Shown one piece after another: positions 4,195 through 57,990 of a stretch of 64,000 nt of DNA. A program made the translations under genes and the position numbers. A model generated the notes under the pieces. It saw only the letters and a list, made by a program, of their open reading frames with translations. It had not been told where the DNA came from and ran no database searches. Position 1 is the first letter of the stretch. Each line of letters starts with the position of its first letter. The stretch is taken from contig DYDA01000004.1 in the NCBI GenBank assembly GCA_020718105.1, positions 6,124 through 70,123 on the forward strand, given 5' to 3'. The stretch comes from Micavibrio sp. (lineage in GTDB: Bacteria; Pseudomonadota; Alphaproteobacteria; UBA9219).

Positions 4195-4198
4195 GGCG

Positions 4199-17955: not shown

Positions 17956-17989
17956 GGGCGGCTCACAAAGAAGGAAGAGGAGAGAGCTT

Positions 17990-18556: not shown

Positions 18557-18606
18557 AAAAAGGTTCTTCCTGATAAAGAGGGAGGGATGGGGAGAGAAAA
18601 AAGCTT

Positions 18607-37061: not shown

Positions 37062-37063
37062 GC

Positions 37064-37834: not shown

Positions 37835-37996
37835 TAAGAGCAGGGAAAGTGGCGGCGGCTTTTTGTTTTTCTGTGCGGGGAAGGCACGCCTTATTGGAAG
37901 AGAGAATAAAAAAAACATAAACTTTATATTAACACTGATTTGGTGAGAATGGGATAAGGAGCGGTAGAATGATTTACACTGATTCGGGGATGTCCT

Positions 37997-39142
37997 TTGT
38001 TTCGTAAAAACGAACGTATTTCGCTGGCCTCAACCACGCAAAGCGTGGTCGGGGGGCTTGTTTTCGTTGTTGCTTTAAGCGCTTCATCATTGTGGGCGCA
38101 AGATAAGGCCCCCCCTTCTTTGACGATGTCTGTGCGCGCCGCTTTGGCTTCAGCGCAAAAAAGCAGTGGTGAGCCCTCAATTGATGCTGCCTCTAAGGGT
38201 TCAGAAAAAGCGGCGCCTACAACGGGGGGCATTGATTTGCCCGGAGCGCCTCCTTTAAGTGAATCTGTGGCAGATCAGCTCAATCTTGAACAACAGGCCG
38301 AAGAAGCCGCAGCGCGTGCAGCAGAAGAACAGCTTCAAAGAGAAGAAGATCATAATCGTAAATCGTATAAGCGTGCTTCGCAGGGGCTTTTGCCTTTATC
38401 GCCGGATCAAGTTCGTGATTTTATGCGAAAGCTGGAAACAACACAGGAATCGGCTATTCCACCTCATACAGGATCGCCCAAGGGCGAGGTTAAGGTTGTT
38501 GGCGTTTCGTTGGATCCTGGTGGTGAGCCTGCGCAAATTAATTTAGCGGCAGGCTACATTACGACAATTGACATCATTGATATAACAGGAGAGCCGTGGC
38601 CCATTCTTGATGTTGGTGTGGGGGGCAATTTTGAAGTGACCCCGACGCAAGCTGGTTCCCATGTTGTTCGCGTTGTTCCTTTGACGCGTTTTGGAACGGG
38701 CAATTTGTCCATCTTGCTTAAAGGCCTGTCAACGCCGATCATTTTCCGTCTGTCGTCTGGCGGGCCAACTTTTCATATGCGCTTTGATGCGCGTGTGCCC
38801 AGCCTTGGCCCCAACGCCAAGACCCCATTGATCGATCATCGTCGCAAAGGGCCTGTGGCGGGTGACGCTGTGCTTTCTATGATCCTTGAAAATGCGCCAC
38901 CGCCCGATGCCAAAAGACTTAAGGTTGGTGGTGTGGATGCAAGAACGATGGCGTGGCAAATTGGGGAGAGCGTTTATGTTCGTACGCCTCTGGCGCTTTT
39001 ATCACCGGCGTGGAATGCCAGTGCGTCATCGGCGGATGGAATGACGGCTTATGAAATTGGGAACGCTCCTGTTCTCTTAATGTCAGATAATGGCGCCATG
39101 ATACGCGCGCGCCTCATGCGGGAAGACGGCCATGACAAATAA
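37997..39142 (+). CDS. DotH/IcmK-like outer-membrane/periplasmic T4BSS core protein
   Basis: 381 aa (IcmK is 360 aa). Signal peptide ending SLWAQD. Position between DotI-like and DotG-like genes. TTG start in the ORF track. Confidence 0.5.
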   Translation: MFRKNERISLASTTQSVVGGLVFVVALSASSLWAQDKAPPSLTMSVRAALASAQKSSGEPSIDAASKGSEKAAPTTGGIDLPGAPPLSESVADQLNLEQQAEEAAARAAEEQLQREEDHNRKSYKRASQGLLPLSPDQVRDFMRKLETTQESAIPPHTGSPKGEVKVVGVSLDPGGEPAQINLAAGYITTIDIIDITGEPWPILDVGVGGNFEVTPTQAGSHVVRVVPLTRFGTGNLSILLKGLSTPIIFRLSSGGPTFHMRFDARVPSLGPNAKTPLIDHRRKGPVAGDAVLSMILENAPPPDAKRLKVGGVDARTMAWQIGESVYVRTPLALLSPAWNASASSADGMTAYEIGNAPVLLMSDNGAMIRARLMREDGHDK

Positions 39143-40631: not shown

Positions 40632-40825
40632 TTTGTGGCAGGGGGCTGTTTTGTTCGTGGTGCGAAACATAAAATAGCTTCAATCTGACCCTAAGATGGT
40701 TTATCGTGAGCTCCTGTTTTTGAAGGGGTCTTCCTTGCTTGCCTGTGTGGGGCGAGGAGGGGGTATCTTAAAGAGTTGGGAAAGCTCTGCGGACTTGCTT
40801 AAGTAGTGTATGAAAGGGATCTGTT

Positions 40826-42103
40826 ATGACGGATAAACCAACAGAAACAGGGGAAGACCTGTCTCTTCAAGATGACTTTTCTCCAAGCGATTCATCAACG
40901 GAAGCATGGCAAGATGCCCTTCCCCCTGAAGATGATTTTCATGATCAGGACGAGGGAGCCGAAGAAATTCTTGATGAAATGGTAGAAGAGGCCACCAAGC
41001 AAGAGGGCGGTGACCCGCCCAAACGTGGACGCGGCGTTTTGATGGGAGCCTTGGGCGTTGGGGCTCTTCTTATCGGAGGCTTGGCTTATCTTCAGTTTGG
41101 CTCTTCGACAAAAGACGACGGGCTAAAGGTGATGCCCGTTTCGAATGTCATGAATATAAAAGAAATTAAGAGCGCCCCTGGTCCTAAAGAGGATCCTTTG
41201 GCTAAAAAAGAGCAACCGCTTGATGCCACAGGCAAGGTTGATATGACCGCTATTTTTCATCAGGCACAAAAGAAGGTGACGACGGGCGGAACGATGGCTC
41301 TTCCCATTAAAGAGGGGGAAAAGCTTCCAACGGAACGCCCAGAGTCCGTTGAGAAAAACACTGAGATTTTATCGTCAAGCGATAATGGGGGCTTGCCGTC
41401 TTTGCCTCCAACGCCTGCTCCCCTTTCTGGGACACAGGCTGTTCAAGAGCTTAAAGTTGAAACGCTTCCTGTCAAAAAAGAGGAAATTAAAGCGCTTTCT
41501 ACGGGGGCGCCGCAAGTCGCTTGGGAAGAACGCATAAACGAAATGACGGCCAAGGTCGAAACCTTAAAAGGAGAACTGGATCGTTCTTTGCAACAGAATG
41601 CACAACTTGTATCGCAAGTGGAAACATTGAAAAAAGCAACGGCTTTGTCACAAGAGGCGGCTTTGCGAGAACAGGTTGCTCAGCTTGAGCAAAAACTGGC
41701 CGCAAAAGACAAAAAACAAGAAAACGCCTCTCTTCTTTTAGAAGGGAAGGGCGAGAATGCCGTTGGTCAGGCCGATGTTGTTTCGGGGGATGAATCTTCC
41801 CCTCCTGCGCCCATGATTGCCTTAGATGGGGTAAAGAAAAAGGAAAAGGCCTCTTCTCAAAAAACACGCACCAAGACGTCAGCAAAAAAAGCAACCAAGA
41901 AAAAAGCGCCACCCGCCCCCTCCTCTTCTTGGGTGCTTCGTGCGGCGACGCCTGATGCGGCTTGGGTTTCTTCTGGTTCAGAAAGCCAAGAATTGCGCCG
42001 TGTCGCTGTAGGGGAAACGCTGCAGGGGCTTGGGAAAGTAAAAGAAATTCGTCAAAATGGTGAAAAGTGGGAGGTTGTCGGAGAAAAAGGAACGCTTCGC
42101 TAG
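40826..42103 (+). CDS. DotF/IcmG-like bitopic coiled-coil protein (tentative)
   Basis: Acidic N-terminus, single TM (GVLMGALGVGALLIGGLAYL), long coiled-coil and Lys-rich region. Occupies the icmG position of the cluster. Confidence 0.35.
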   Translation: MTDKPTETGEDLSLQDDFSPSDSSTEAWQDALPPEDDFHDQDEGAEEILDEMVEEATKQEGGDPPKRGRGVLMGALGVGALLIGGLAYLQFGSSTKDDGLKVMPVSNVMNIKEIKSAPGPKEDPLAKKEQPLDATGKVDMTAIFHQAQKKVTTGGTMALPIKEGEKLPTERPESVEKNTEILSSSDNGGLPSLPPTPAPLSGTQAVQELKVETLPVKKEEIKALSTGAPQVAWEERINEMTAKVETLKGELDRSLQQNAQLVSQVETLKKATALSQEAALREQVAQLEQKLAAKDKKQENASLLLEGKGENAVGQADVVSGDESSPPAPMIALDGVKKKEKASSQKTRTKTSAKKATKKKAPPAPSSSWVLRAATPDAAWVSSGSESQELRRVAVGETLQGLGKVKEIRQNGEKWEVVGEKGTLR

Positions 42104-42132
42104 TCCCTATTCATTGGGCGAATGAGAAAAAA

Positions 42133-42157
42133 GAGGGGGCTTGCGCCCTCTTTTTTT
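42133..42157 (+). terminator. rho-independent terminator candidate after the DotF-like gene
   Basis: GAGGGGGCttgcGCCCTC stem followed by TTTTTTT. Confidence 0.4.
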
Positions 42158-42290
42158 GTCTCGAAATTAAACAGGTTTTTAATTGTTTAAGGCACAATGG
42201 ATATGAGAGAATGCGCTATAAGGCGCTGTTTTTTGAAAAGGTGAAGCGGAAGATGTGGTGTCTCCCCCCCTTTTGTCGCGGAGCAAGAAC

Positions 42291-43235
42291 ATGGGTTTGA
42301 AAATGGATAAAAAATATTCAAAAGGAACTTATTTCTTTCCTTTTTTTGTCGCGCTCTTTTTTCATCCCAGCAGTGTTTGGGCACAAAACACTTTGGGAAC
42401 CCTTCTTTGTAATGCAAAGGATGCGGGGACATCCTATCCCCTCATTCTTAATGCCATCGCCTATATTGCGGGCGCTTTTTTGACGGTGCGTGCCGTTCTT
42501 TTATTTAAAAGACATGCCGAAAATCCAAACCAATCTCAAATCGTTGCGGGGGTGGCGCATGCTGTCGGCGCGGCTTTTCTTCTTTCCTTGCCTCTCTTTG
42601 CGGGCGTTATTCAGGAATCTATTTTAGGAAGTGTTACGGGCACATGGGATGGCGCCTGTACGGAAGGCGGTGTTGTCAGCGCAAGCGCCCTTGATGTCAT
42701 GATGCAAAACCTTGTGACGAATATTCATGGGCCGATGTTTAAATTGCTGTCGATGCTCAGCGTGATCATCGGCCTGACGTTTATTGTAAAGGGATTGTTT
42801 GCCGGTGTTAAAACGGGCACGGACCCGCGCGCCTCTAGCCCCAAGACCATCATTGTCAATTTGGTTATTGGGGCGGTTCTGATTTCAATAGGGGGCGTGC
42901 TGAATGACCTTCTCCTAACGATTTTTGGCGGAACAACGGCTTCTCCCAGCAATATGAGAAACTTTTCTGGCATTGCCTGGTCCACTTTTGTTGGATCGGG
43001 CGTTGATACCATCGCTGCCGATAATACGGTGAAGGCGATTTTGGCCTTTATTCAAATTATTGGGGGCATTGCTTTTCTTCGGGGCTGGCTGATTGTTAAA
43101 GCTGCGGTTGAAGGCGGGGGGCAGGCGACGATCCCTCAAGGTGTTACCCATATCGTTGGGGGCGCGATGGCTGTTAATATCGATGTCATGCTTAAAATCA
43201 TCGATAATACGTTTGGAACGGGGATCATTAATTAG
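42291..43235 (+). CDS. DotE/IcmC-family polytopic membrane protein (tentative)
   Basis: Signal peptide plus at least four TM helices. Shares the YxLILNAIxYIxGAFxxVxAxLxxKRHAENP motif with the next gene, as the IcmC/IcmD paralogs do. Much longer than Legionella IcmC. Confidence 0.35.
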   Translation: MGLKMDKKYSKGTYFFPFFVALFFHPSSVWAQNTLGTLLCNAKDAGTSYPLILNAIAYIAGAFLTVRAVLLFKRHAENPNQSQIVAGVAHAVGAAFLLSLPLFAGVIQESILGSVTGTWDGACTEGGVVSASALDVMMQNLVTNIHGPMFKLLSMLSVIIGLTFIVKGLFAGVKTGTDPRASSPKTIIVNLVIGAVLISIGGVLNDLLLTIFGGTTASPSNMRNFSGIAWSTFVGSGVDTIAADNTVKAILAFIQIIGGIAFLRGWLIVKAAVEGGGQATIPQGVTHIVGGAMAVNIDVMLKIIDNTFGTGIIN

Positions 43236-43440
43236 GGCGTTAATTAAATCCTTGTTAAGAAATACATAGGACAATAAGGGAAAGGACAAGCTTCTAAAAA
43301 CATTGAAAGTAATCAGGAGGCTGTTGATACCGAAAGAAAGTTGATGTAGCCTTACCTTTATGGCAAAGGCAGAATTCAACAAGAACGCAAGACCCTTTTA
43401 CCAAAGGGATAAGGCAACTTTTTATAACCAGGAGGAAACG

Positions 43441-43827
43441 ATGAAAAAAAGCGTATTGATGGGCGAAATGTTCAAGTGGGGCGTTCTTACGGCGATCATT
43501 GCCGTGGCTATGCCAGAGCTGGTGTCGGCACAAACGGGGGTTAATGCTTTGCTCACTGATGTGACCCAAGAGCAGCTGCCTGTGTTCCCCTATATTTTGA
43601 ATGCCGTTTGTTATGTCGGCGGTGCCTTTATGATGGTTTCGGGTGCTTTGAGCCTTAAGAAACATGCGGAAAACCCAACCAGTGAGCCTATGTCTAAGGG
43701 CATTGCGCGTCTTCTTACGGGTGGCGCTATTACGGCCGTTCCGACGCTAACAAAAGTTTTACAAGAAACTGTTTTTACGGCAACCTCTGGGCCTGCCGAC
43801 TACACAGGGTTTACGCCATCTTTTTAA
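43441..43827 (+). CDS. DotP/IcmD-like small membrane protein
   Basis: 128 aa from ATG 43441 with an AGGAGG RBS (IcmD is 132 aa). Signal peptide. Paralogous core PYILNAVCYVGGAFMMVSGALSLKKHAENP. Confidence 0.4.
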   Translation: MKKSVLMGEMFKWGVLTAIIAVAMPELVSAQTGVNALLTDVTQEQLPVFPYILNAVCYVGGAFMMVSGALSLKKHAENPTSEPMSKGIARLLTGGAITAVPTLTKVLQETVFTATSGPADYTGFTPSF

Positions 43828-43839
43828 CAAGAGGGTTTC

Positions 43840-44538
43840 TTGACCTTTCTATCCCTTTCTCTTGGCGTCGGGCAGCGGCTTGACGCCAAGGGGACGGTTT
43901 CAAAGAATAGTGTTCCGTCCAAGGGCCAGTTTGAAAAAACGCTTGGACGCGATTCTTTTTCTTGCCGTTGCTGCGGGTTCACTTCCCCAAAATACCAACG
44001 CGTTCTTTCCGTGAGCGCCCTTTCTTCGGGAAAGGGTGGCGGGGAGGATTTTGTGGCGGTCTGTTCCTTTTGTGAGCTGACGGCAACGCTTGACCGTGCG
44101 GGCCAGACAGCGGCGGGTTATGTGATCTGGTTGCCTGAGCTATCGCAAGGCGATCTCAACCACGTTATGCACGCGCTTTATATTGCGCGCGAAAGCGCCC
44201 ATGCTGAATTATCCAAAGCGGCCTCTCGCACCTTGGATGTTTTGACGGCAAGGCGGGCTGAGGCCAAGAAGCGGCTGGGCACGGATGATCCTTTGATTTT
44301 TGCCACGGCTCTTTTAGAGCAGGTGGAGCCAGCCCATGATGCCGCACGAGCGGCGCGGTTAGAGGGGCTTCGTTTTTTGCCGCTTGATCGTTACTTTGTT
44401 CCCGTTCGCGGCAAAGAAACCAACGTATTTCCGCAAATGCTGGCCTATTGGGCCTCTGCCGAAGGCCCTTACGGAAAGCTGCCTGTTGAGCAGTGGACGG
44501 CGCTGTTTGATGATGTGACCGCAAAAGCTGGCGCGTAA
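43840..44538 (+). CDS. DotN/IcmJ-like Cys-rich cytoplasmic protein (tentative)
   Basis: 232 aa (IcmJ is 208 aa). Cys clusters CRCCGF and CSFCEL. Occupies the icmJ position after the icmC/icmD-like genes. TTG start with AAGAGGG RBS. Confidence 0.35.
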   Translation: MTFLSLSLGVGQRLDAKGTVSKNSVPSKGQFEKTLGRDSFSCRCCGFTSPKYQRVLSVSALSSGKGGGEDFVAVCSFCELTATLDRAGQTAAGYVIWLPELSQGDLNHVMHALYIARESAHAELSKAASRTLDVLTARRAEAKKRLGTDDPLIFATALLEQVEPAHDAARAARLEGLRFLPLDRYFVPVRGKETNVFPQMLAYWASAEGPYGKLPVEQWTALFDDVTAKAGA

Positions 44539-48132: not shown

Positions 48133-49356
48133 ATGAAAACGAAAGATTTTCAGGAAAAAGGCGCAGCGCTTTTCTTGACCAGCTTGCCGCTTGTCACGTT
48201 GGTTCTTTATGGTCTGATCACTACCGTGGGGCTTCTTTCCGGCGGCGCATGGGGCGGCATCGGGATCGGCGGCTCGTTGTTGCTGGTGCTTCTTTATGGC
48301 GTAGGGCACAAGCGTTTTCCCACGCCCGATAGGTTTGTTGCGCTCTTTGTTTTTTTTATGCTATCGGCGGCGCTTGTATCGTGTTTTCACTCTTTGGTGC
48401 CTCAGGCATCATGGCGGGAAACGCTGAAGTTGGCGACGATCCTTATCCCCTTGCTTGTTCTGTTTGCGCCGCCTTTGCAAGAAGCTTGTCTTTTGCCAGA
48501 GCGCTGGCTGTTTCTTTTGGCGCTGTTGCTGCTGCTGGGGTTAGGGACGCACAATGGATTGCTGTTCTATCTTATTCAAGAAGGGGGCGACGCGTCGGTT
48601 TATGTGACCAAGCTTAACCGAGGCCTTTCTTATGGGCTTTTGTTGCTATGGCCCCTTGTGGCGGCTTTGTGGGGCGCGCGGGATCCGCAAAAGAAGAAAG
48701 GGATTCTTTTGTGGGCGCTTTTTCTGTCCGTGGCCCTTGCTTTGGCGTTGACGCGCTCTCGCGCCTCGCAGGTGGGCGCGGTTCTGGCTGTGGGCACGTT
48801 CGTCGCAGCGTGGGCGTTGCCTAAAGTAACGATGGGGTTGTTGGGGCTGGTTGGTGTTGGCTCGCTCGCTTGGCCGATAGGGGCGCAGTATGCCTTTGCG
48901 CATTGGCAGGCCATGGTGCTGAAAATCCCAGCCTCATGGGGGCATCGCGTTGAAATATGGGATTATTTATCTTATCGAATCTTTGAAAAGCCTTTTTTCG
49001 GATGGGGCATCGGGCAAGCCGGACGGCTGGATTGGCGCATTCCTCATGAAAACCTATACGTTTATACAACACAACCTGCGGCGCATCCCCATAACGCGGT
49101 TATGCAGCTTTGGGTTGAGCTTGGCATAGGGGGGCTTGGACTTTATCTTTTCCTGTTTTTCTTGGCTCTTTATGGCGCTTCCCGCTTGCGGTTGCCCCTT
49201 CGCCCCTTTGCCTTGGCGGCGATGGCCTTTGCTTATGCTCTTTTGATGTCGGCTTATAACGTTTGGACGGATTCCTTGTGGGCGGCGATGGCTTTAACGG
49301 CATTTGCTTTTGTCGTCTTGCCTTTCGAAAAGAATGGGAAATTAAGGGATCATTAA
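48133..49356 (+). CDS. O-antigen ligase (Wzy_C)-like polytopic membrane protein
   Basis: 407 aa with ~10-12 TM helices. Has the periplasmic loop with conserved Arg/His pattern (ALTRSRASQVG...H) typical of WaaL/O-antigen-ligase-like proteins. Confidence 0.5.
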   Translation: MKTKDFQEKGAALFLTSLPLVTLVLYGLITTVGLLSGGAWGGIGIGGSLLLVLLYGVGHKRFPTPDRFVALFVFFMLSAALVSCFHSLVPQASWRETLKLATILIPLLVLFAPPLQEACLLPERWLFLLALLLLLGLGTHNGLLFYLIQEGGDASVYVTKLNRGLSYGLLLLWPLVAALWGARDPQKKKGILLWALFLSVALALALTRSRASQVGAVLAVGTFVAAWALPKVTMGLLGLVGVGSLAWPIGAQYAFAHWQAMVLKIPASWGHRVEIWDYLSYRIFEKPFFGWGIGQAGRLDWRIPHENLYVYTTQPAAHPHNAVMQLWVELGIGGLGLYLFLFFLALYGASRLRLPLRPFALAAMAFAYALLMSAYNVWTDSLWAAMALTAFAFVVLPFEKNGKLRDH

Positions 49357-49466: not shown

Positions 49467-49946
49467 ATGTACCGTATTGTGACGCTGTTATGCTTGATGG
49501 TCATGGGATGTGGCGCGGCCTCTTTTGCTGCGGAGGAAGCCATGTCTTTGGCCCCTTTAAAAGAATGGGTTGGCGTTTTTTCTTTTGAGTCCAAGGACGG
49601 CAAAAGCTTTTGGACAGCCCCCCTTTTGCAAAAAGAAGCGCACAAGGCGCTGGATCAAGCACACTTTGATGGCCTGTTTAACGGCTATGCGAAACAAATC
49701 ACAACGCCCCTTGAGCAAAAGGGCGACATCCTTTTCGCCTTTGCCTGCAAAGAACATGCGTGCAGCAGCGATAATGCGCGCCTTTATATCAATCTTAAGA
49801 AAAACACGATTTCGGCCTGTTGGCATGGCGAAAAACTGCCCAGCGATTTATGGTTCTCTTTTGATAAGAAGCCAGAAGAGATTGGCAAAGACGGTTGCCT
49901 TAAAGCCAGCGATTTTGATCTTTACGGACTTTATGAGAAAGAATAG
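49467..49946 (+). CDS. small secreted protein / lipoprotein, hypothetical
   Basis: Signal peptide MYRIVTLLCLMVMGCGAASFAA with a possible lipobox VMGC. 159 aa. Confidence 0.35.
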   Translation: MYRIVTLLCLMVMGCGAASFAAEEAMSLAPLKEWVGVFSFESKDGKSFWTAPLLQKEAHKALDQAHFDGLFNGYAKQITTPLEQKGDILFAFACKEHACSSDNARLYINLKKNTISACWHGEKLPSDLWFSFDKKPEEIGKDGCLKASDFDLYGLYEKE

Positions 49947-49952
49947 CGGGCA

Positions 49953-51245
49953 ATGATAAAAGTCTCCTTTTATCACAGGATTTTTTCAGGCGCGGCGGCT
50001 CTTATGGTCGCGAGCGTCCTTGCCTTTGGCGCGATGCTTTTGGGACACATGACAACAGCTGAGGCTTATAATGACACGCAAAGCCGTTGGAGTGAGGTTA
50101 CTAAAAGCAAAAAAACAGTGGATCAAGCAGAAGATTTGATGGGAAAGAACGGCCTTATGGCGGCGATTGAAGCCAATGGCGGCGGCTATACGAATGAGTT
50201 AAAGGCCATGGCGATCCATGAGGCTGATGGGCGTTTGGGCGCCGTTAATGAAGGCTCTTTGGCTTATTGCGCTTTTCAGATTTATCACACCAATATCCCT
50301 GCGTTTGCATCGAGAAAGGGAATGTCGGAAAAGGCTTATATTCAAGCGCTTCTTACGGATCCTGCCACTTGCGCCGAAGCGGGTGGGTGGGTTTTGAGTG
50401 ATATGATTTCTAGGCATGGCTATGACAAAGGGATTTGTTATTATGGCGGGCAGATTACAGAGTATAAAGAAACCGGCAGCTGTTCGATGTTGCGTGAGAT
50501 AAAAATCATCATCGGCTTGATCGACGGCACGCTTAAGCAAGAAGTTGTGACGGATAAGGACTCGCCTGATTATGGCAATGTCATTATCAAGGATAACAGC
50601 GGCGAAATTGTGACAACGCTTAATTGCCAAGACCGTTCAAAGAAGCTGGCGCTTGCTTTGCGTAAGGCGAACGATGCGTATATGACGACGGCCTTCGAGG
50701 CGGGCGAGAGAGAGTCTGTCAGTCTTACCGAGCGCGATAGCGGACGCGCTGGCATAAAGTATGAGGGGGTTCCTGAGGATGATTGGCGTTATGAAAAGGG
50801 AACGCCGCTTAAAGAGGTGCGCGGTAAGATTGCTGATACATATTGTTTGAAGGTGTATTTTGATTATTTTAATTTTCTACGAGGGCTTATGTCAACGGGT
50901 CAACTGATTGAGGCCGCCATTATGGCCGTTGTTGAGCAAATTCTGGACTATGCTTGCGAATATGCGACCGAAGTGGCTACGCAGTTTATTGATAGCACGC
51001 TCAATAAGTTTTGTTTATCGATCCCCACCCTTCATGTTGGGTTGAACTTTTCCCACGGTAGCGCGACTTCTTGCAGCGGGTTTTCTTTGGCGGATGTTTT
51101 GGCGGTTGGGTATGGCCAGATTGATGCCGAAGATTTTGAAAATGGTGTTTCATGGCCGTCGGATGGTGGCATGCCTCCCGTCGCTGGAATGCCCACGGGG
51201 CGGCCTGATGTGCCCCACTTACTGTTGGATTTAAGACGTCAATGA
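49953..51245 (+). CDS. secreted Cys-rich protein, family A (paralog 1)
   Basis: Signal peptide. C-terminal region VRGKIADTYCLKVYFDYFNFLRGLMSTGQLIEAAIMAVVEQILDYACEYA is shared with the next gene. Confidence 0.45.
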   Translation: MIKVSFYHRIFSGAAALMVASVLAFGAMLLGHMTTAEAYNDTQSRWSEVTKSKKTVDQAEDLMGKNGLMAAIEANGGGYTNELKAMAIHEADGRLGAVNEGSLAYCAFQIYHTNIPAFASRKGMSEKAYIQALLTDPATCAEAGGWVLSDMISRHGYDKGICYYGGQITEYKETGSCSMLREIKIIIGLIDGTLKQEVVTDKDSPDYGNVIIKDNSGEIVTTLNCQDRSKKLALALRKANDAYMTTAFEAGERESVSLTERDSGRAGIKYEGVPEDDWRYEKGTPLKEVRGKIADTYCLKVYFDYFNFLRGLMSTGQLIEAAIMAVVEQILDYACEYATEVATQFIDSTLNKFCLSIPTLHVGLNFSHGSATSCSGFSLADVLAVGYGQIDAEDFENGVSWPSDGGMPPVAGMPTGRPDVPHLLLDLRRQ

Positions 51246-51270
51246 TGAAAACGAGAGAAAGAGGTGTCCT

Positions 51271-51948
51271 ATGACCCAGTCCTACATCAAACAAGCTTTG
51301 CTTCTGCCTTTTATGGCGTTTCTCTTTGTTCTGGCCAGCGCGGATCTTTCGCCGACAGCCGCACTGAATTTTGATGTGAGCGCGTGGGAGGCTAGAGAAA
51401 AGCTTTCTGATGACCTGCCCCCCTGTCCCGATGAACAGATGGCGGGACGGTTGACGCGAGCCAACAAGGCTCGTTTCGCGACAACGCAGTCGGCGATGCA
51501 GGATGTTTTTAAGGATTCGATTGAAAACGATAAAACAACGCCTAAAAAATATGTGCGCGGCAAGATTTTGGATACCTATTGCCTGAGCGTCTATCTGGAT
51601 TATTTTGGCGCTATTAGTGGCATGCTGTCTGGGTTTTCGGTGATAGAGGCGGCGGTTTCCGCGTTGATTGCGAATATTATTGAGGCAGCGGGGGAATATG
51701 CCTGTAATTATGTTCGAAATGCTGCCAATGAGTTTCTGAATTCTTTTTGTGTCCCGCTTCCGTACCTTAGCTTTTCGGCAAGCTTGCCTACGACGTCTTC
51801 TCATTCGACATGCACTGGGCTGTCCTTAGCCGATGCCATTAAGGTTGAGCCGAGCACGCCCTTGCAAACGACGTATCCCTTGAATGAAGTTTATCAATCA
51901 AGGCCTATGTCTCGTTGGTTGGGGACGGGCAGTACGGGACGCTTTTAA
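51271..51948 (+). CDS. secreted Cys-rich protein, family A (paralog 2, shorter)
   Basis: Signal peptide (MAFLFVLASA). Region VRGKILDTYCLSVYLDYFGAISGMLSGFSVIEAAVSALIANIIEAAGEYACNYV is paralogous to the 49953 gene. Confidence 0.45.
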   Translation: MTQSYIKQALLLPFMAFLFVLASADLSPTAALNFDVSAWEAREKLSDDLPPCPDEQMAGRLTRANKARFATTQSAMQDVFKDSIENDKTTPKKYVRGKILDTYCLSVYLDYFGAISGMLSGFSVIEAAVSALIANIIEAAGEYACNYVRNAANEFLNSFCVPLPYLSFSASLPTTSSHSTCTGLSLADAIKVEPSTPLQTTYPLNEVYQSRPMSRWLGTGSTGRF

Positions 51949-51965
51949 TCAGGGATGGTTTTGAT

Positions 51966-53537
51966 ATGAGCAAGCACAGAACATTGTGGGGCTTTATGAA
52001 GCGGTGGCTTCTGTGCTTGCTTGCCCTTTTTATGTTGGGGACGGCGGTGGCGCCCGCCCCTGTTCACGCGGGGACGTATGTTACTTTTGTGGTGGGTGTA
52101 AGTGAACTTATTACAACCGCGTGGTCTTATATCAAACTGGCGGCGGAATGGGCCAGCAACCTAACGGTTGTTAAAGATGTTATTACTGTGCTGTCGGCTA
52201 TGTACGACTTGTGGACTGAGCTTTTCAAAAATTCGCAGAAAAGGCTTGGGTACGATATTCGTGCCATTTTATATGGGGATATGGTCGCCGCTAAGGTTGA
52301 GGAAAAAATTGCGCAAGCACGCGTTGATGCAGGCGTCCTTAATGCGTTTAAAGGGGTGGCCGTTGGGCAGGCGATGAAAAACGCTGTGCCTAAACATGAA
52401 TATTTATGTAAAAAGATGTTGACTGGTGGAATGAGCGTTTCGACGCAGGATTTTGAAAAAGAGGTTTCGCGCATGGCGGCGGAAGCGATCAATGATCGCT
52501 ATCGTTGCCCTACCTGTGATGGCCGTGGGCCTGACTATATAGGCCTAGAATCAGCGCGGCGTTGTACGCAAGGCTATGGCAACACGCTGGTTGATGGCGC
52601 CAAAACAACCTGTGAAAAGACTTTGGATAATAACGCAAGCTTGGCGGATGCCGATATTTCGCCCATCGATGGCGGGCAGGTTTATGAAATGCCCGCGATG
52701 AGTAGACAGTATTATGACAGTGGTAGCGAGACGGAATGGTGGTGGTATATTTTTGATGATTCTTCTTCTTTTCTTGTTCCTAACCCCAGCACGGATCGAC
52801 AAAAGTTATGGGTGGCGGCATGGGATAATATCTTTTTGCTGGCAGGGCCGCGCCCAACGCCAAAGCACGGTGCAGGTATGAACACCCCCGTTGGCAAAGT
52901 GCAACGTGCCATGTTTAATCATTGTGCGGCCAGTCAAAACGCGCTTGTGAAACAGTGCACGGATTTATTGGCTTATTATACGCGCCCCAATTGCAATCAA
53001 ATAGAAACGTCGGAAACGTCTTGGCTTTGGATGAAAGAGCCGAACTTGTGCAAAGGGCAACAAGAAAAGTGTCTGGCGGCTAAGGATATGATTGATATTG
53101 CGCCATTTAGTGATTGTAAAGAAGGGCTCAGCCCGTATGAGGAGGATCAGATTGACCAACTCCTTTGCAAAAGCTCACAACATTACGTCGATATGGTTCA
53201 GGCGGGCGCGACTTATGAAAAGCTGGAGGAGTCCAGTGATTTATGTGAGTCGTCTTGGATAAAGTGGCGCGCTGCTGTTGATAAAAAACACGCCAACTGT
53301 ACGGCGGCCGTTAATGGCATGCAGTCCTTGGAATCCTGTTGGGCGGCTGTTGATTCAATCGGTGGCGGGCAAGCAGCTCTTAAAGAGGATGGTATGGGAT
53401 TGGTTTCTGATACCTCTCGTGCCCCTAAGGCGGCGCATAGAGAAAAGCTGCACAAAGCGAACTGGCAAAAACCGCGTGAGCAAAGAAAAGCGATTGAATC
53501 ACGGGAAGACGCTTTAAATTATGCGGTGGCTCCATGA
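51966..53537 (+). CDS. secreted Cys-rich protein, family B (paralog 1)
   Basis: Signal peptide MKRWLLCLLALFMLGTAVAPAPVHA. Conserved blocks PKHEYLCKK, DRYRCPTCDGRGPDY, LWVAAWDNIFLLAGPRPTP and NHCAASQNALVKQCTDLLAYYTRPNC. Confidence 0.5.
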   Translation: MSKHRTLWGFMKRWLLCLLALFMLGTAVAPAPVHAGTYVTFVVGVSELITTAWSYIKLAAEWASNLTVVKDVITVLSAMYDLWTELFKNSQKRLGYDIRAILYGDMVAAKVEEKIAQARVDAGVLNAFKGVAVGQAMKNAVPKHEYLCKKMLTGGMSVSTQDFEKEVSRMAAEAINDRYRCPTCDGRGPDYIGLESARRCTQGYGNTLVDGAKTTCEKTLDNNASLADADISPIDGGQVYEMPAMSRQYYDSGSETEWWWYIFDDSSSFLVPNPSTDRQKLWVAAWDNIFLLAGPRPTPKHGAGMNTPVGKVQRAMFNHCAASQNALVKQCTDLLAYYTRPNCNQIETSETSWLWMKEPNLCKGQQEKCLAAKDMIDIAPFSDCKEGLSPYEEDQIDQLLCKSSQHYVDMVQAGATYEKLEESSDLCESSWIKWRAAVDKKHANCTAAVNGMQSLESCWAAVDSIGGGQAALKEDGMGLVSDTSRAPKAAHREKLHKANWQKPREQRKAIESREDALNYAVAP

Positions 53538-54922
53538 AAAAGCTGCAAACCGTTTTTTTAGGGTTTCTTTTCATCTGGTTTCTTGCCGCATGGCCTTCCA
53601 ATGCGCAGGCCGAATGGATTAATCCTGATACGGGAACCACGGAGCTTCAGGGTTCCGCGCCTGAAGGAGAGTCGGCGGGGGAATTTGTAATAAACCCGCT
53701 AAAACTTATCATGAATTTAATTCAGGCGGCGATAGAGCGAGGAAAGGAGGCCTTGGAGATAAGCGGGCTGAAGGGAATCCTTGATGGCGTTGTGACCCTT
53801 TATAAGGGGTTCAACCAAAGGTTTATGGAAATGTACGAAGCTTTTACTGTCAATATGGCTAAAAAAAGCGCAGCGCAGCATCTTTATGCGGCGACGGAAA
53901 TAGAAATAACGCAGGCGGAAGTGGATGCGGCCACAAGCAATGTTTTTTGGAAGGAGGGGATGAATATGGTTCCCCAAGTCCTTTCGCCCAAGAATGAGTA
54001 TTTGTGTAAGAAAGTTTTAGCGCATCAAGCCACGACAACAACGCAGGCCTTTGAAAGAGAAGTGTCGCGTATGGCGGCTGAAGCGATCAGTGATCGCTAT
54101 CGTTGCCCGACTTGCGATGGCCGTGGCCCCGATTATGTCGGCAAGGAACAGGCGCGCCGTTGCAAGCAGGGCTATGGAAACGCCATTGATGGCGCATCGC
54201 TGGGATGCAAAGCCAGTACGGCCAGTGGAAAAAGTTTGGCGGATGCTGACATTGCGCCGATCGATGGTGGGCAGATGTATCAGATGCCTAAAATGGAAAC
54301 CAAAGCTTATGTTGATTCTGTTACGGGCGCGAGCATGACGGTCAGTGTTCCCGCGCCCATCAATGAACAACAGACATTATGGGTTGCGGCTTGGGATAAC
54401 ATCTTTCTTCTTGCGGGGCCGCGTCCGACGCCGTCCCATGGCAAGGGGATGAAAACCCCCGCAGGCAAAGTGCAACGCGCCATGTTTAATCACTGCGTCG
54501 CCAGTGAAAATGCGTTGATCAAACAATGCACGGACTTGTTGGCCTATTACACGCGCCCCAATTGCGCCGAGTCGGGCGATTTATGCGCAGCGCAGCAAAA
54601 GGAATGTTTGGCCGCCACGGGATTTGTTGATCTTGAGCCCTATCAAAACTGTGGGAAAAACGGAAATGTTTCTGACTGGCAGGGATTAAGCCCCTATGAA
54701 ACACAAAAGATCAATCAAGATTTATGTAAAAGCGAACAAAGCAGCAGCAATCTTCTGCATGGCGGGGCAAAATACAAGGATGTGCTTTTAGATACGGTGG
54801 CTCTTTGCGATTTATCGGATCAGGCGTTAAAAGAGTTTGTCGCGCGTAAGCATGAAAATTGTCGCTCAGCAACACAGGGATTGCAAACGCTTCGGTCCTG
54901 TTGGGGTGCTGTTGGGCAATGA
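53534..54922 (+). CDS. secreted Cys-rich protein, family B (paralog 2)
   Basis: ATGA overlap with paralog 1. Signal peptide. Same conserved blocks (PKNEYLCKK, DRYRCPTCDGRGPDY, LWVAAWDNIFLLAGPRPTP). About 17 Cys. Confidence 0.5.
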   Translation: MKKLQTVFLGFLFIWFLAAWPSNAQAEWINPDTGTTELQGSAPEGESAGEFVINPLKLIMNLIQAAIERGKEALEISGLKGILDGVVTLYKGFNQRFMEMYEAFTVNMAKKSAAQHLYAATEIEITQAEVDAATSNVFWKEGMNMVPQVLSPKNEYLCKKVLAHQATTTTQAFEREVSRMAAEAISDRYRCPTCDGRGPDYVGKEQARRCKQGYGNAIDGASLGCKASTASGKSLADADIAPIDGGQMYQMPKMETKAYVDSVTGASMTVSVPAPINEQQTLWVAAWDNIFLLAGPRPTPSHGKGMKTPAGKVQRAMFNHCVASENALIKQCTDLLAYYTRPNCAESGDLCAAQQKECLAATGFVDLEPYQNCGKNGNVSDWQGLSPYETQKINQDLCKSEQSSSNLLHGGAKYKDVLLDTVALCDLSDQALKEFVARKHENCRSATQGLQTLRSCWGAVGQ

Positions 54923-55005
54923 GTGCGGGGATAACACTGGTTGATGGGGGTGGCGACACAAAACGTCGTTCACCACAGAGCCCCTAAAAGGGCAGGAGGA
55001 ATAAA

Positions 55006-56559
55006 ATGATGCGGATCATTAAAAAAACAATGCTGGTGCTTTCTCTGGCCTTTTGTTTGTTAACGGGGGGAAGCCTTGTGGCCCCCGCACCTGTTTATGC
55101 TGGAAGTCCTGTTATTATTGATCCGGCCAATCTTATTGCGACCCTTGCCGAATGGGGTGCGCGCTTTGCCGCCATGGCCAAAAAGCTTGCCGTGATTGGA
55201 GAAATTATATCCGTCATTTCCAACATTTATGAATTGATCATTGAGGGCTTTGGAAAGATGATCAATTTGGTCGATGATGACGCTAAGCTTAATGTGTTGG
55301 GACAAGAAGGGCTTGCTCTAACCAAACAACAATTAGCACAGGTTTGGATCGATAATGATACGTTGAATGCTAAACTTGCGGCAGATATGAAGCTTGCGGC
55401 CGATCATGCTGCCCCTAAAAATGAGTATTTGTGTAAAGCGACCTTAGTTCATCAATTGGCGACGACGACAGAAGACTTTGAACGGGGCGGCTCACGGCTG
55501 GCGCTTAAGGCCATTGAAAGCATGGGGCGTGGCCCGCTTGATGACACCAGTGGCGTGCAATATGCCTTTGATGAAGAAAAATTGAGGTGTGCGGCAGGAT
55601 TCGGGAATGTTCTTGTGGATGGGTATGACGCTTCTTGTGGGGACAGCACAACGGTTGGGGAAGACGCCAAAAGAACCTTTATCGATGCTGATTTAACGCC
55701 GTTTTCGATGGATGGTGCGGTTCCCCTTGAGATGCCGCAGTTTACATCTAAGGTCGTGACGCTTCCTGATGGAAAGGAAGTAACCGTGAGCGTTCCTATC
55801 ATCTCGGCTGACAAACCAAATCAAAAAATGTGGCTTGCTGGGCTTTATCATTGTTTCCAACTGGCTGGGCCTCGCCCGACCCCCGCTTGGGGTGAGGATA
55901 AGATGACGCGTCCCACAGGCCTTGTTGAGCGGGCTCGCTTCGATCATGCCCTTGCCATGCAAAGCGCGATGGTCAAGCCCTGCACCGATTTGTTGGCTTA
56001 TTATACGCGGCCTAATGTGGACGATCCTTCGACGGCATCGCTTATTGGTGAACAACATAAACGCTGTGTTTCGGCAAAGGGTTATGTTCATGAAGATGAC
56101 CTTAAGGAAAAGTTTAGCGATTGCCTATCTCCCAACTTTCGAGGGTTAAGCCCTTATCAAGTGGATTTTTTAAGCCATTTGATGTGTAAAACCGAACAAC
56201 ATCATATCTCTTTGATTCAGGCGGGGGCAACGCAGCCTGAACTTATCAATGATACGATCAAATGTTCTGCGGCATGGAATACGTGGCAGGCCAAAGTGGC
56301 CGCCAAGCAAGGCGCTTTGGCTGATGTGGTGACGGGGATTCAGGGAACGAAAAACAATTGGATGGGCGTTGGCGGCACTATGGCGGGATTGACGCGGCAA
56401 GAGGACAGCGGTGCACATCGTGTTGTTAAAGCGATGAAGCCAAAGGTTCAGCCTATCGTGCCGCAAGAAATCAAAGCTGAGCGAGGTTTGCCTCTTCCTC
56501 AGGCAGGAATCCCTTTTGCGCCGGATGAGGTGGCGTGGCCCATGGCTGTGTCGCAATAA
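55006..56559 (+). CDS. secreted Cys-rich protein, family B (paralog 3, divergent)
   Basis: Signal peptide ending APAPVYAG. Blocks PKNEYLCKATL and MWLAGLYHCFQLAGPRPTP. The zinc-ribbon-like CPTCDG block is degenerate. Confidence 0.45.
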   Translation: MMRIIKKTMLVLSLAFCLLTGGSLVAPAPVYAGSPVIIDPANLIATLAEWGARFAAMAKKLAVIGEIISVISNIYELIIEGFGKMINLVDDDAKLNVLGQEGLALTKQQLAQVWIDNDTLNAKLAADMKLAADHAAPKNEYLCKATLVHQLATTTEDFERGGSRLALKAIESMGRGPLDDTSGVQYAFDEEKLRCAAGFGNVLVDGYDASCGDSTTVGEDAKRTFIDADLTPFSMDGAVPLEMPQFTSKVVTLPDGKEVTVSVPIISADKPNQKMWLAGLYHCFQLAGPRPTPAWGEDKMTRPTGLVERARFDHALAMQSAMVKPCTDLLAYYTRPNVDDPSTASLIGEQHKRCVSAKGYVHEDDLKEKFSDCLSPNFRGLSPYQVDFLSHLMCKTEQHHISLIQAGATQPELINDTIKCSAAWNTWQAKVAAKQGALADVVTGIQGTKNNWMGVGGTMAGLTRQEDSGAHRVVKAMKPKVQPIVPQEIKAERGLPLPQAGIPFAPDEVAWPMAVSQ

Positions 56560-56571
56560 AGGAAAACAGAA

Positions 56572-57990
56572 ATGCTTTTTTGGTGTAAAACAACGCCCTT
56601 GATGCAAGAGGGGGATAAGAAAGCAGGGGGGCTACGAAAAGGCTCTCTTCGTTTTCTCATCGTTTTGACAACGCTGCTTTTCGTTTTTGCCGCCGTGTGG
56701 AATCCACCTTGCGCTTATGCCGTTGATGACGGTGATACGACGAATAGTTCCATTGAAAACGCCATTACAAAATGGGGTGTTTTGCAAGAGATTGCTGCTT
56801 TTCTAGAGGAAAATGAAGCTTGGATATCTATGACAAACGGTCTTACGAACGTCATGAATCTTTTTAAAGATAAGATGCGGGCACTTCGCGCTGCGCGTGG
56901 GCAGGGTGTGATTAAACAATTAACGGCGCAAAGAGTTCAGGCGACGATGACAACGGAGGCATGGAATGCCGTTATTGACCAAAGCGCTAGCAATGCGGAT
57001 TTAGAACAAAAAATGAAGCATGCGGCCGAGCATGTTCTGCCTCCGGCTTCAGAACAATTCCTTTGCAATCTTATTCTGGCGCGGCAAGGCGTGCCCGTTA
57101 TGACCGAGTTTGCGCGCATTATCTCCAAGATGGTGGCCAAGGGCATTGATACCCGTTACCGCAGTAAGGGGAGCGATGGAAACGGTCCTCAATACGCCAT
57201 GGATGCGTGGCAGATTAAATGCGGCAAGTATGGCGAGGATAGGCCGAAAACAGGCAACGCTATTGATGGCGTCCCAGAAGAATGCCGTGCGGAAACAACC
57301 GCGCCCACGATAGGATATGCCGATGGCGATGTGAGTGTGGCCACGTTGAGCCGAGAAAAGGTTTATACTGTGCCGCCTGTTAAAGAAGAGGCAAAAGTGA
57401 TTAATGGAACGGTGGAAACGGTTGCAGACTTTGTTCTCGACAAAGAGAGTGGCTCTTATGAAGCGCATAGGCAGTGGCTTATGGCGCGGCAATACTGTTA
57501 TAATCTGGCGGGGCCACGGCTGACCCCTCCGCGTGACGAAGATTTGGACAGACCCGCTGGAAAGGCCAAGTTTGTTCAGTTTACAAGCTGTCTGTCCCGC
57601 CAAAGCGCCTTTGTAAAACTTTGTGCGGATCGTTTAGGCAAATTAACGCGCCCCGATTGCTCTAATGATGATTTTAAGGAGTTTTGTGACGCTTCTATTC
57701 AGGCGTGTGATGCGGCGCGTGAAGCCCAGATCGTTTTGCCTCCTGAATTTAACAACTGTAAGGATGGGCTAAGCCTTTATCAGGCGGAATATCTTTCAAG
57801 CGCTCTTTGTGGTTCAACGCGTCGCATTCAGGCGGATACCAATGGCGGGGTTCAAGATCACAAAAAAGTCAGCACGCTGCTTATGTGCCAAATCATGCGA
57901 GAATCGTTAGCAAAACAACAGCAGGAAGAAGACAGAACCTTTATAAAAGCTTTACAGGGCATGCAGAATATGAAGGGATGCTGGGAATAA
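56572..57990 (+). CDS. secreted Cys-rich protein, family B (paralog 4, most divergent)
   Basis: Signal peptide (LIVLTTLLFVFAAVWNPPCAYA). Blocks EQFLCNLILARQ, QWLMARQYCYNLAGPRLTP and FVKLCADRLGKLTRPDC. Confidence 0.4.
   Translation: MLFWCKTTPLMQEGDKKAGGLRKGSLRFLIVLTTLLFVFAAVWNPPCAYAVDDGDTTNSSIENAITKWGVLQEIAAFLEENEAWISMTNGLTNVMNLFKDKMRALRAARGQGVIKQLTAQRVQATMTTEAWNAVIDQSASNADLEQKMKHAAEHVLPPASEQFLCNLILARQGVPVMTEFARIISKMVAKGIDTRYRSKGSDGNGPQYAMDAWQIKCGKYGEDRPKTGNAIDGVPEECRAETTAPTIGYADGDVSVATLSREKVYTVPPVKEEAKVINGTVETVADFVLDKESGSYEAHRQWLMARQYCYNLAGPRLTPPRDEDLDRPAGKAKFVQFTSCLSRQSAFVKLCADRLGKLTRPDCSNDDFKEFCDASIQACDAAREAQIVLPPEFNNCKDGLSLYQAEYLSSALCGSTRRIQADTNGGVQDHKKVSTLLMCQIMRESLAKQQQEEDRTFIKALQGMQNMKGCWE

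Follow-up and report, generated by a model that had tools for sequence, protein, structure and literature searches.

Within the type IVB secretion (T4BSS) gene cluster of the stretch of DNA analysed here (64,000 nucleotides of an uncultured Micavibrio-like alphaproteobacterium, called the window below), four genes, B1 to B4, encode exported proteins which we regard as old paralogs of the IcmX/VirB5 class, stapled by disulfides and kept in two to four non-redundant copies. We put the probability of this reading at roughly two in three, and the kinship to IcmX would be one of predicted fold and not of sequence. It was only in 2025 that IcmX and DotA were placed at the centre of the Dot/Icm machine, as its gate and extensible conduit, and IcmX is the presumed target-contacting component. 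The T4BSS genes of the window encode DotO, M, L, I, J, H, G, F, E, N, D, C and B, together with IcmT; dotA, which encodes the partner of IcmX, was found neither in the 64-kb window nor in any retrieved flank, and no second IcmX candidate besides family B was present within the window, which covers part of the genome.

The genes B1 to B4 are preceded by the two members of a second paralogous family, A1 and A2. All six lie on the plus strand between positions 49953 and 57990 (Table 1), as a preliminary description of this DNA had it. The position given there as the start of the array, 49467, belongs to a seventh gene, encoding a 159-aa lipoprotein, which opens the conserved module. The array had also been described as flanking dotDCB, but lies entirely on one side, upstream of dotD, dotC and dotB. 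The disulfide isomerase-like gene said to follow it immediately is present, but is separated from it by the genes for p285 (always next after the last B gene, and without a family match in Pfam or NCBIfam scans) and for a lytic transglycosylase of 151 aa; likewise, a 94-aa membrane protein is encoded before dotD, which had been thought to come next. The signal peptides announced for family B are apparent on reading the sequence, all six proteins having a hydrophobic N-terminal region followed by an AxA-type site, and the ATGA by which B1 and B2 overlap was located at 53534-53537. The longest open reading frame of B1 spans 51915-53537 (540 aa), and the true start is probably the ATG at 51966 or that at 51996, the latter being where the P0001 version of B1 (513 aa) begins. 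A scan for promoters and terminators returned nothing informative.

Table 1. Genes of the array and of its immediate surroundings, in window positions.
Feature	Position	Strand	Evidence and remarks
Wzy_C membrane protein (O-antigen ligase / O-oligosaccharyltransferase-like)	48133-49356	+	Pfam Wzy_C E 9.6e-15
159-aa lipoprotein, tentatively Ivy-like (inhibitor of lysozyme / lytic transglycosylase)	49467-49946	+	lipobox LMVMGC, CKEHAC loop
A1, long family A member, 430 aa	49953-51245	+	putative signal peptide, four-Cys C-terminal domain
A2, short family A member, 225 aa	51271-51948	+	putative signal peptide and A1-type four-Cys C-terminal domain
B1, B1/2 subfamily, IcmX-like	51966-53537	+	CPTC motif, long C-terminal tail
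B2, B1/2 subfamily, IcmX-like, 462 aa	53534-54922	+	start overlaps B1 stop (ATGA)
B3, B3 subfamily, IcmX-like, 517 aa	55006-56559	+	several Cys pairs lost; C-terminal end ...AVSQ
B4, B4 subfamily, IcmX-like, 472 aa	56572-57990	+	earliest-diverging type
p285, conserved 285-aa protein without signal peptide	58163-59020	+	86% (L003) and 64% (L001) identical
VirB1/TrbN/IagB-type lytic transglycosylase (SLT), 151 aa	59022-59477	+	NCBIfam TrbN E 4.8e-22, IagB E 4.6e-13; Pfam SLT E 3e-4
DsbC/DsbG-like thiol:disulfide isomerase, periplasmic (predicted), 351 aa	59484-60539	+	CPNC active site
p94, conserved 94-aa membrane protein	60553-60837	+	precedes dotD
dotD	60941-61450	+	Pfam DotD E 3.9e-26
dotC	61428-62300	+	Pfam T4SS_TraI E 5.3e-71
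dotB	62279-63538	+	Pfam T2SSE E 6.7e-35

Judged from BLASTP alignments, the paralogy within family B is far beyond chance: B1 is 46% identical to B2 (E 5e-129), 35% to B3 (E 1e-81) and 25% to B4 (E 1e-31), and B2 and B4 share 28% identity (E 2e-41). Three subfamilies (B1/2, B3 and B4) are found again across approx. 160 sequence clusters. On these comparisons the paralogs are old, with the B4 type as the first to split off, the B3 type as the next, and B1 and B2 as the last to separate. The gradient of divergence noted earlier along the array is present, but it is the order of these old duplications, each B type having 1:1 orthologs in other genomes, and does not indicate the ongoing diversification that had been read into it. 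Recent gene conversion among the B paralogs was considered and rejected, the best DNA blocks being only 77-83% identical. The copy number is 2-4 at all loci (11/11) and never 1; to our knowledge, IcmX, TraW and VirB5 are single-copy in every known system. Order and presence of the A and B genes are strictly kept, even between genomes in which identity falls to about 20%, and the B4 type always occupies the final B position. Scans of all ten cluster proteins against Pfam and NCBIfam gave no match for families A and B, no name was obtained for 20 distant family members, and the approx. 160 clusters consist of unnamed metagenomic proteins. The suggestion of a new secreted family holds for the sequences, for which there is no curated model or name, but not beyond them.

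The B genes lie inside a dot/icm-type cluster in nine of the ten other loci, with L010 and L011 excluded from the gene context. They are located upstream of the p285-SLT-Dsb-p94 genes in L001/L002, L003, L006, L012, L013 and the P0138 contig, and dotD, dotC and dotB are found downstream wherever the sequence reaches (dotD only in L012). Seven loci share the synteny p285-SLT-Dsb-p94-dotDCB; one of them, the P0138 contig, is without dotDCB in its recovered sequence and has DotO/M/L upstream. In L007, the B genes are followed by gyrB and the module does not adjoin dot genes. In L001, L012, L013 and the P0138 contig alike, the Wzy_C gene is a kept neighbour immediately 5′ of the module; L013 also has a Peptidase_M23 gene, directly downstream of Wzy_C and upstream of the two B genes of this locus. 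A tblastn search with B2 against 72,556 plasmids gave no match, and no A or B homolog occurs within 20 kb on either side of the closest plasmid-borne DotO (44%), that of the Methylorubrum AM1 megaplasmid.

The assignment to the IcmX class comes from predicted structure. IcmX (PDB 9ngy) was the top structural match for both B models, and the elements of its fold, i.e. an N-terminal helix, an extended domain and C-terminal helices, are all found in family B. In the predicted layout of the B proteins, the signal peptide is followed by a long N-terminal helix, a middle domain rich in loops and including a beta hairpin, and C-terminal helices. This layout matches the published domain description of IcmX, a VirB5-like protein of 466 aa with SP, NH, an extended domain (90-290) and CH1/CH2. 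With sizes of 462-540 aa and predicted Sec export, family B also fits the about 400-470 aa and the periplasmic or secreted location of IcmX and TraW. By sequence, hmmsearch with B profiles built from 4, 19 or 129 sequences gave no PDB match at E<=10, 9ngy included, and a bridging database search with a 125-sequence B profile returned family members alone and did not reach IcmX. Comparison with IncI1 TraW yielded an hhalign probability of 0.2%, and TraW in a local HMM search remained at noise level (E 1.9). Sequence tests of IcmX/TraW membership are low in power, because TraW belongs to no Pfam family and lacks a sequence relative in the PDB. The structural match could be convergent, and family B a lineage-specific family of disulfide-rich periplasmic or surface proteins, not of IcmX descent, serving as accessory adhesin or scaffold of the T4BSS or of the adjacent type IVb pilus and not as its central channel. 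We consider this unlikely.

The number of cysteines had been overestimated, at 15-20 conserved residues: eight are invariant across B1 to B4, which contain 16, 15, 10 and 15 in total. The sequence blocks quoted with them do occur in family B, with D-R-Y-R-C-P-T-C limited to B1 and B2. Across 132 sequences, Cys columns come and go pairwise, most strictly 344-351 (phi 0.98) and 321-456 (phi 0.94), followed by 191-194 (0.87), 358-373 (0.83), 210-225 (0.75) and 398-425 (0.65); 158-332 is a further predicted pair. This pairwise gain and loss points to up to seven disulfides in family B. The extended and C-terminal domains would be stapled by three core and up to four accessory disulfides. It also supports the previously proposed link with the disulfide isomerase gene, which appears reasonable. 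According to family models, the product of this gene combines a thioredoxin fold (Thioredoxin_2 E 8.6e-5) with a CxxC site (CPNC, residues 231-234) and a DsbC-type N-terminal domain (DsbC_N E 0.005, both Pfam), and it matches NCBIfam DsbG with E 1.2e-21 at 77 bits, below the curated cut-off of 124. IncI systems also have a disulfide isomerase, TrbB, and the place of the Dsb-like gene in a T4SS cluster mirrors that of TrbB; it differs from the TrbB/DsbC/DsbG isomerases in scoring below curated cut-offs, and the B proteins would be its putative substrates.

Between the window and L003, identity is 95% for DotB, 92% for DotC and 91% for DotD, compared to 55-76% for B1-B4. Values of dN are 0.15-0.31 for the A and B genes versus 0.03-0.04 for DotB/C/D, i.e. 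the former evolve 3-8 times faster at nonsynonymous sites, and family B is most variable in its N-terminal third. This rate is compatible with the earlier idea of surface-exposed or host-facing proteins. The dN/dS analysis proposed at the same time gave gene-wide values of 0.13-0.25, indicative of purifying selection, these values being rough with a dS of about 1, near saturation. Among the Dot/Icm proteins of Legionella, IcmX shows the lowest conservation (51%, versus 94% for DotB), above all at its N-terminus (PMC6761968).

If family B is indeed of the IcmX class, its members would be exported by Sec and oxidised in the periplasm, where the DsbC/G-like isomerase of the cluster would repair wrong disulfides. 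They might then come together in the middle of the DotC/D/H/G core complex, as a hetero-oligomer, as stacked rings or as alternative tips, possibly with a division of labour among the paralogs, and would act as the gate of the channel and as its end in contact with the target. A pentamer docked on a DotA/TraY pentamer is the arrangement expected of the IcmX/TraW class. In the Legionella machine, IcmX gates the channel and moves outward to the target membrane upon activation; its release into the supernatant is also known.

In the conserved module, family B has A1, A2 and the small lipoprotein as obligate companions. Family A is always found with family B (A1 orthologs are present in L001, L006, L007, L010, L011 and L012), and hhalign detected no relation between the two families. 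The C-terminal Cys domain described as common to A1 and A2 was borne out (last ~120 aa 41% identical, E 7e-26); A2 ends in a conserved tail, ...GRF. That family A might represent a split DotA was rejected, each A protein having one N-terminal hydrophobic segment, with an additional amphipathic helix in A2. The N-terminal domain of A1 possibly has a diverged lytic transglycosylase fold of the VirB1/IagB type, given a weak match to NCBIfam IagB (E 0.011) and an alignment to the SLT family of the cluster (hhalign probability 0.7%) in register over the HxE...MQ...YY motifs. This motif is not kept in the distant A1 orthologs of L006 and L007, and the A1 profile gave no match among PDB sequences. 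In the lipoprotein, a loop CKEHAC or CKAHAC was read from the sequence, to be compared with the CKPHDC-type inhibitory loop of Ivy. Precomputed matches to Pfam Ivy (PF08816) exist for lipoprotein orthologs, and direct hmmscan gave E 0.088; the window copy has no Pfam match to Ivy, and the lipoprotein profile has no PDB sequence match. We tentatively regard A1 as a VirB1-like wall-remodelling accessory, and the lipoprotein as its possible inhibitor.

The Ivy-like lipoprotein and the weak lysozyme-fold signal in A1 would also suit a reading in which A, B and lipoprotein are cargo, i.e. Sec-exported toxins or lytic factors with an immunity lipoprotein, that act on the envelopes of prey or host and share no more than a location with the T4BSS. 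So would the Peptidase_M23 gene near the B genes of L013, the fast evolution of the A and B genes, and the labelling of relatives as Micavibrio, an epibiotic predator genus. This is very unlikely, however, as strict order and presence and stable orthologous subfamilies are typical of structural parts and not of toxin arsenals, the dN/dS values are purifying, the matching fold is that of a machine component, and the Ivy and lytic transglycosylase (A1) assignments are both below significance. There is next to no chance that family B represents Cys-rich F-type mating-pair proteins folded by TrbB-type isomerases, as had been envisaged with TraH, TraN and TraU: many Cys, export signals, a nearby DsbC-like gene and the similar size of TraH fit, but no Pfam or NCBIfam match to TraH, TraN, TraU, TraW or TrbC models was obtained at E<=1, no such structure was among the fold matches, the 72,556 plasmids contained no B homolog, and the system belongs to the I/Dot-Icm type and not to the F type.

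Returning to family B as IcmX-like channel components, a far-reaching scenario can be drawn, whose odds as a whole we rate as decidedly low. Micavibrio-like epibiotic predators and their relatives would possess a T4BSS with a hetero-oligomeric, disulfide-stapled tip or channel made of three IcmX-like subfamilies, with a wall-lytic A1 restrained by an Ivy-like lipoprotein and possibly with Wzy_C-type glycosylation, as a machine for breaching the envelope of bacterial prey and not a eukaryotic membrane or that of a conjugation partner. More generally, a lineage with two to four old, disulfide-rich IcmX-like paralogs would provide a natural experiment on structural versus target-facing parts of IcmX, and the B paralogs could tell whether a heteromeric or exchangeable central pentamer is possible. 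The assignment would give a putative function to approx. 160 sequence clusters without name or model, and draws attention to a T4BSS that is chromosomal and inherited vertically in uncultured relatives of bacterial predators among the alphaproteobacteria.

Among known systems, IcmX of the L. pneumophila Dot/Icm machine (PDB 9ngy; Yue et al. 2025) resembles family B in its Sec signal peptide, its length of about 460 aa, its location among dot/icm genes, and in being the fastest-evolving component with the N-terminus as the most variable part. Family B differs from it in the lack of detectable sequence similarity, in its 10-16 Cys with paired covariation, in the presence of 2-4 old paralogs where IcmX is one gene, and in its neighbours, which lack icmW, icmV and dotA and include the dedicated A1/A2/lipoprotein module. 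In Legionella, disulfides have been reported in DotA and not in IcmX. TraW of IncI1 plasmids (R64 type), given in PMC12624023 as the equivalent of IcmX/VirB5, is likewise a periplasmic component of an I-type T4SS, of about 400 aa, but is single-copy and plasmid-borne, unlike the B genes. VirB5/TrwJ, seen in the R388 stalk (PDB 7o3v), has about 220 aa, nucleates a pilus and is located on VirB6; the B proteins have twice that length and contain a large insert rich in disulfides. Tandem paralog arrays of T4SS surface components are known from Rickettsiales (rvh VirB6-like and VirB2 families), where, likewise in Alphaproteobacteria, a subunit of the channel or surface has been duplicated in a chromosomal T4SS of the effector type and the paralogs long retained; those arrays concern VirB6 and VirB2 in a type IVA system, and the array of the window the VirB5/IcmX class in a type IVB system.

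The cysteine-rich exported paralogs B1 to B4 and the second family, with its long member A1 and short member A2, are encoded by narrowly spaced ORFs that lie on one strand, as reported in the preliminary description (see table). Paralogy of the B proteins was borne out by BLASTP, with 46% identity between B1 and B2 (E 5e-129) and 25–28% in comparisons with B4 (E ~1e-29 to 1e-41). A1 and A2 do have a common C-terminal domain (~120 aa, 41% identity, E 7e-26), the export signals are seen as a hydrophobic start followed by an AxA-type site in all six A and B proteins, and the genes of B1 and B2 do overlap at an ATGA. B1 probably starts at ATG 51966, with an AGGGA box upstream, or at 51996, which matches the 513-aa database protein P0001. 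Other points required revision. Family B is indeed Cys-rich, but only 8 Cys are invariant across B1–B4, B3 has 10 in total, and the CPTC block ascribed to all B proteins is restricted to B1 and B2. Nor does the Dsb-like isomerase gene immediately follow the array: genes for a 285-aa protein (p285) and a 151-aa TrbN/IagB-type lytic transglycosylase (SLT) intervene after B4. A 94-aa membrane protein (p94) is encoded directly 5′ of dotD. Recent gene conversion among the paralogs was ruled out, because DNA identity does not exceed 77–83%, over short conserved blocks.

Positions of the A/B module and of associated genes in the window
Feature	Position	Strand	Basis or remark
DotO	13574-16558		family scan; DotM and DotL also present
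GT4 glycosyltransferase	21040-22071		3′ of DotL
DotI, DotI-like DotJ, DotH, DotG, probable DotF, TraQ/DotE-like, DotN	36.4-44.5 kb		
Wzy_C (O-antigen ligase / PglL-type)	48133-49356		
159-aa lipoprotein	49467-49946	+	ORF
A1	49953-51245	+	ORF, 430 aa
A2	51271-51948	+	ORF, 225 aa
B1	51915-53537	+	longest ORF
B2	53534-54922	+	ORF
B3	55006-56559	+	ORF
B4	56572-57990	+	ORF
p285	58163-59020		no signal peptide, no family match

The gradient of divergence from B1 to B4 had been taken as ongoing diversification. A distance tree of 132 members instead features three large subfamilies (B1+B2, B3 and B4) and basal divergent members, and tblastn identified 1:1 orthologs of B1, B2, B3 and B4 at L003 and, at L001, a single representative of each type (B1/2, B3, B4), both being database loci of relatives; the last B gene is always of the B4 type. 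Since the subfamilies have orthologs in other genomes, the gradient reflects the order of duplication, with B4 splitting first, then B3, then B1/B2, and the paralogs are old, not a currently diversifying array. Relative to L003, identity is 91–95% for DotB, DotC, DotD and the SLT protein and 55–76% for B1–B4. Nei-Gojobori dN is 0.15–0.31 for A and B genes and 0.03–0.04 for DotB/C/D, with gene-wide dN/dS of 0.13–0.25 and 0.035–0.05, respectively, ratios which are approximate because dS is ~1. In B2 and B4, variability is concentrated within the first ~150 residues. The extreme C-termini of long-form B1- and B3-type proteins are conserved as ...(D/E)E(I/V)..P.AV(G/S)Q (B1 53450-53537, B3 56470-56559, and orthologs), and A2 ends in ...GRF in most cases (window 51900-51948, L010, L012) and in ...GRY in L001; these ends may be docking or export signals.

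All loci retrieved have the same cassette, i.e. a small lipoprotein, A1, A2 and 2–4 B genes, usually preceded by Wzy_C. Gene context was read at all loci except L010 and L011. Four B copies are found in the window, L003/L009, L012 and L010, three in L001/L002 and L011, and two in L006, L007, L013 and the P0138 contig. The genes p285-SLT-Dsb-p94 are directly 3′ of the cassette in L001/L002, L003, L006, L012, L013 and the P0138 contig, with dotD-dotC-dotB(-icmT) next in L001/L002, L003, L006 and L013, and dotD cut by the locus end in L012. No dotDCB is visible in the recovered sequence of the P0138 contig, where DotO, DotM and DotL lie 5′ of the cassette; in L007, gyrB follows. At L006, L007, L010 and L011, the A-type C-terminal domain is encoded twice, once by an A1-like gene and once by an A2-like gene; it occurs also in L001 and L012. 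The p285 protein, highly conserved (86% identity in L003, 64% in L001), is always encoded between the last B gene and SLT, and so is a putative component associated with the type IVB (Dot/Icm) secretion system (T4BSS). In L013, a distant relative, a Peptidase_M23 (peptidoglycan endopeptidase) gene (4619-5989) lies directly 3′ of Wzy_C and 5′ of the B gene pair; this position may recruit various wall hydrolases. In relatives, TcpQ-like, secretin and PilO-like proteins are encoded 3′ of dotB-icmT (L006 19518-21668; L013 17828-21527; L008 2175-4355), a type IVb pilus cluster resembling the R64 thin pilus and adjoining the T4BSS.

The window looks like chromosome rather than plasmid; its housekeeping genes (GroES/EL, GltX, LexA, ComEC, AddAB, flagellar hook genes, acetate kinase) are interleaved with T4BSS genes. 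The latter form at least three blocks (including 13574-21036 and 36429-44538) parted by groESL, gltX, lexA, comEC and flagellar genes. Gene order inside each is Legionella-like, namely icmL-K-E-G-C-D-J in the 36.4-44.5 kb block, and synteny extends across MAGs, which implies long vertical residence of the T4BSS genes in the chromosome. After the DotN block come groESL, a SpoU methylase, Wzy_C, the A/B module, and then DotD, DotC, DotB and IcmT. In the window, L001, L012, L013 and the P0138 contig, Wzy_C immediately precedes the module, and in L013 a GT4 gene is in turn 5′ of Wzy_C (2257-4496). Together with the GT4 gene of the window, these placements suggest an ancestral DotO-M-x-L-GT4-Wzy_C-module order. 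The exported A/B proteins, or a pilin, are possibly O-glycosylated.

Searching 5.8 billion proteins by word index yielded 18 family B members, and running HMMER exhaustively against 1.84 billion cluster representatives yielded 160 clusters (120 at E<1e-30). All 20 members looked up are named only "hypothetical protein" and come from metagenomes or MAGs. No family B homolog was found among 72,556 plasmids. The closest plasmid-borne DotO (44% identity) is on the Methylorubrum extorquens AM1 megaplasmid (NC_012811.1, L005 446852-489836, record typed MPF_I); the 20 kb flanking it on each side contain no homolog of A or B. The closest MAGs are labelled Micavibrio aeruginosavorus (DYNT01000001.1), "Bdellovibrionales bacterium" WC612, Rhodospirillaceae UBA8914 and Alphaproteobacteria; NCBI places Micavibrio under Bdellovibrionales. 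The first of these (L009) has this T4BSS, with a DotB 95% identical to that of the window. No type IV secretion system was reported in the genome paper of cultured strain ARL-13 (PMC3189940), and therefore either these MAGs are relatives and not the same organism, or the system was missed.

Family B proteins are predicted to consist of a signal peptide, a very long helix at the N-terminus, a middle domain that is rich in loops and includes a beta hairpin, and C-terminal helices. This layout agrees with that published for IcmX, the VirB5-class central subunit of the T4BSS: 466 aa, VirB5-like, with SP, NH, an extended domain (90–290) and CH1/CH2, its pentamer sitting atop a DotA pentamer (preprint 10.1101/2025.06.23.660953). 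VirB5, TrbJ, R64 TraW, CagL and IcmX are tabulated as equivalent in a recent review, as are VirB6, TraY and DotA (PMC12624023). The fast evolution of family B likewise matches that of IcmX, which across 58 Legionella species shows the lowest conservation of all Dot/Icm proteins (average identity 51%, vs 94% for DotB), with an especially variable N-terminus, and is thought to be host-exposed (PMC6761968). Within the 64-kb window, family B is the only IcmX candidate seen. Profile, hhalign and local HMM searches found no sequence link of family B to IcmX or IncI1 TraW; TraW lacks a Pfam family of its own and does not match IcmX in PDB by sequence, so that sequence tests are weak in this family. 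As, moreover, the partner DotA was not seen in the window or the retrieved flanks, we file family B as IcmX/VirB5-class by predicted fold and context, short of demonstrated orthology.

Six Cys (158, 332, 358, 373, 398, 425; B2 numbering) occur in 88–95% of the 132 members and six others in 60–72%; the CPTC pair occurs in ~13%. Presence and absence are strongly paired for Cys 344-351 (phi 0.98), 321-456 (0.94), 191-194 (0.87), 358-373 (0.83), 210-225 (0.75) and 398-425 (0.65), leaving 158 and 332 as a conserved pair. Such pairing is the signature expected of structural disulfides, up to seven in B1/B2, and is in keeping with a protein that has to survive extracytoplasmic conditions. CPTC, a CxxC motif of the B1/2 subfamily only (B1 residues 198-201, window 52500-52520; B2 residues 191-194, 54100-54115), has two Cys that covary with each other and, weakly, with Cys443; it may serve in redox chemistry or metal binding instead of being a plain structural disulfide. 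The 351-aa Dsb-like protein combines a thioredoxin fold with an N-terminus resembling that of DsbC, and its active site reads CPNC. As its gene keeps its position in every dot-linked locus, it is reasonable to infer that it helps fold A and B proteins.

The A1/A2 common domain (~105 aa, four invariant Cys) is unrelated to family B by hhalign. The A1 N-terminal domain matches IagB weakly (E 0.011) and aligns by hhalign in register with the SLT family of the cluster over the catalytic-Glu, MQ and YY motifs, at a probability of only 0.7%; profile search gave no PDB sequence match for A1, and distant orthologs do not retain the motif. The lipoprotein has a lipobox (LMVMGC) and a CKEHAC loop, which recalls the inhibitory CKPHDC loop of Ivy lysozyme/lytic-transglycosylase inhibitors. 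Ivy is precomputed in Pfam for its orthologs; our hmmscan gave E 0.088, below significance, and the window copy has no Pfam match and, by profile search, no PDB sequence match. A tentative and rather doubtful proposal casts A1 as a VirB1-like accessory in wall remodelling, with the lipoprotein as its possible inhibitor and the common domain docking A1/A2 to the B assembly.

In the mechanism we propose, B proteins would be exported via Sec, oxidised, and isomerised by the Dsb of the cluster. On DotA and within the DotC/D/H/G core, they would come together along the axis of the machine in an IcmX-like ring or bundle that gates the channel and, on contact, is extended to the target. At least two B subfamilies are kept in every genome, and the B1/B2 start-stop overlap, not kept in L012, is compatible with translational coupling; taken together, these argue more for an assembly that is heteromeric or layered than for simple redundancy. 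Possibly, the paralogs are alternative, exchangeable tips. The closest known entities to family B are IcmX, TraW and VirB5. Its new features relative to these are expansion into three old subfamilies, an extended domain rich in disulfides, with the gene of a dedicated isomerase nearby, and fixed A1, A2 and lipoprotein companions. All three occur in the chromosomal T4BSS of a lineage of uncultured alphaproteobacteria with bacterial predators among its relatives, and are of moderate to good interest to T4SS specialists, because IcmX has only recently been recognised as the central gate.
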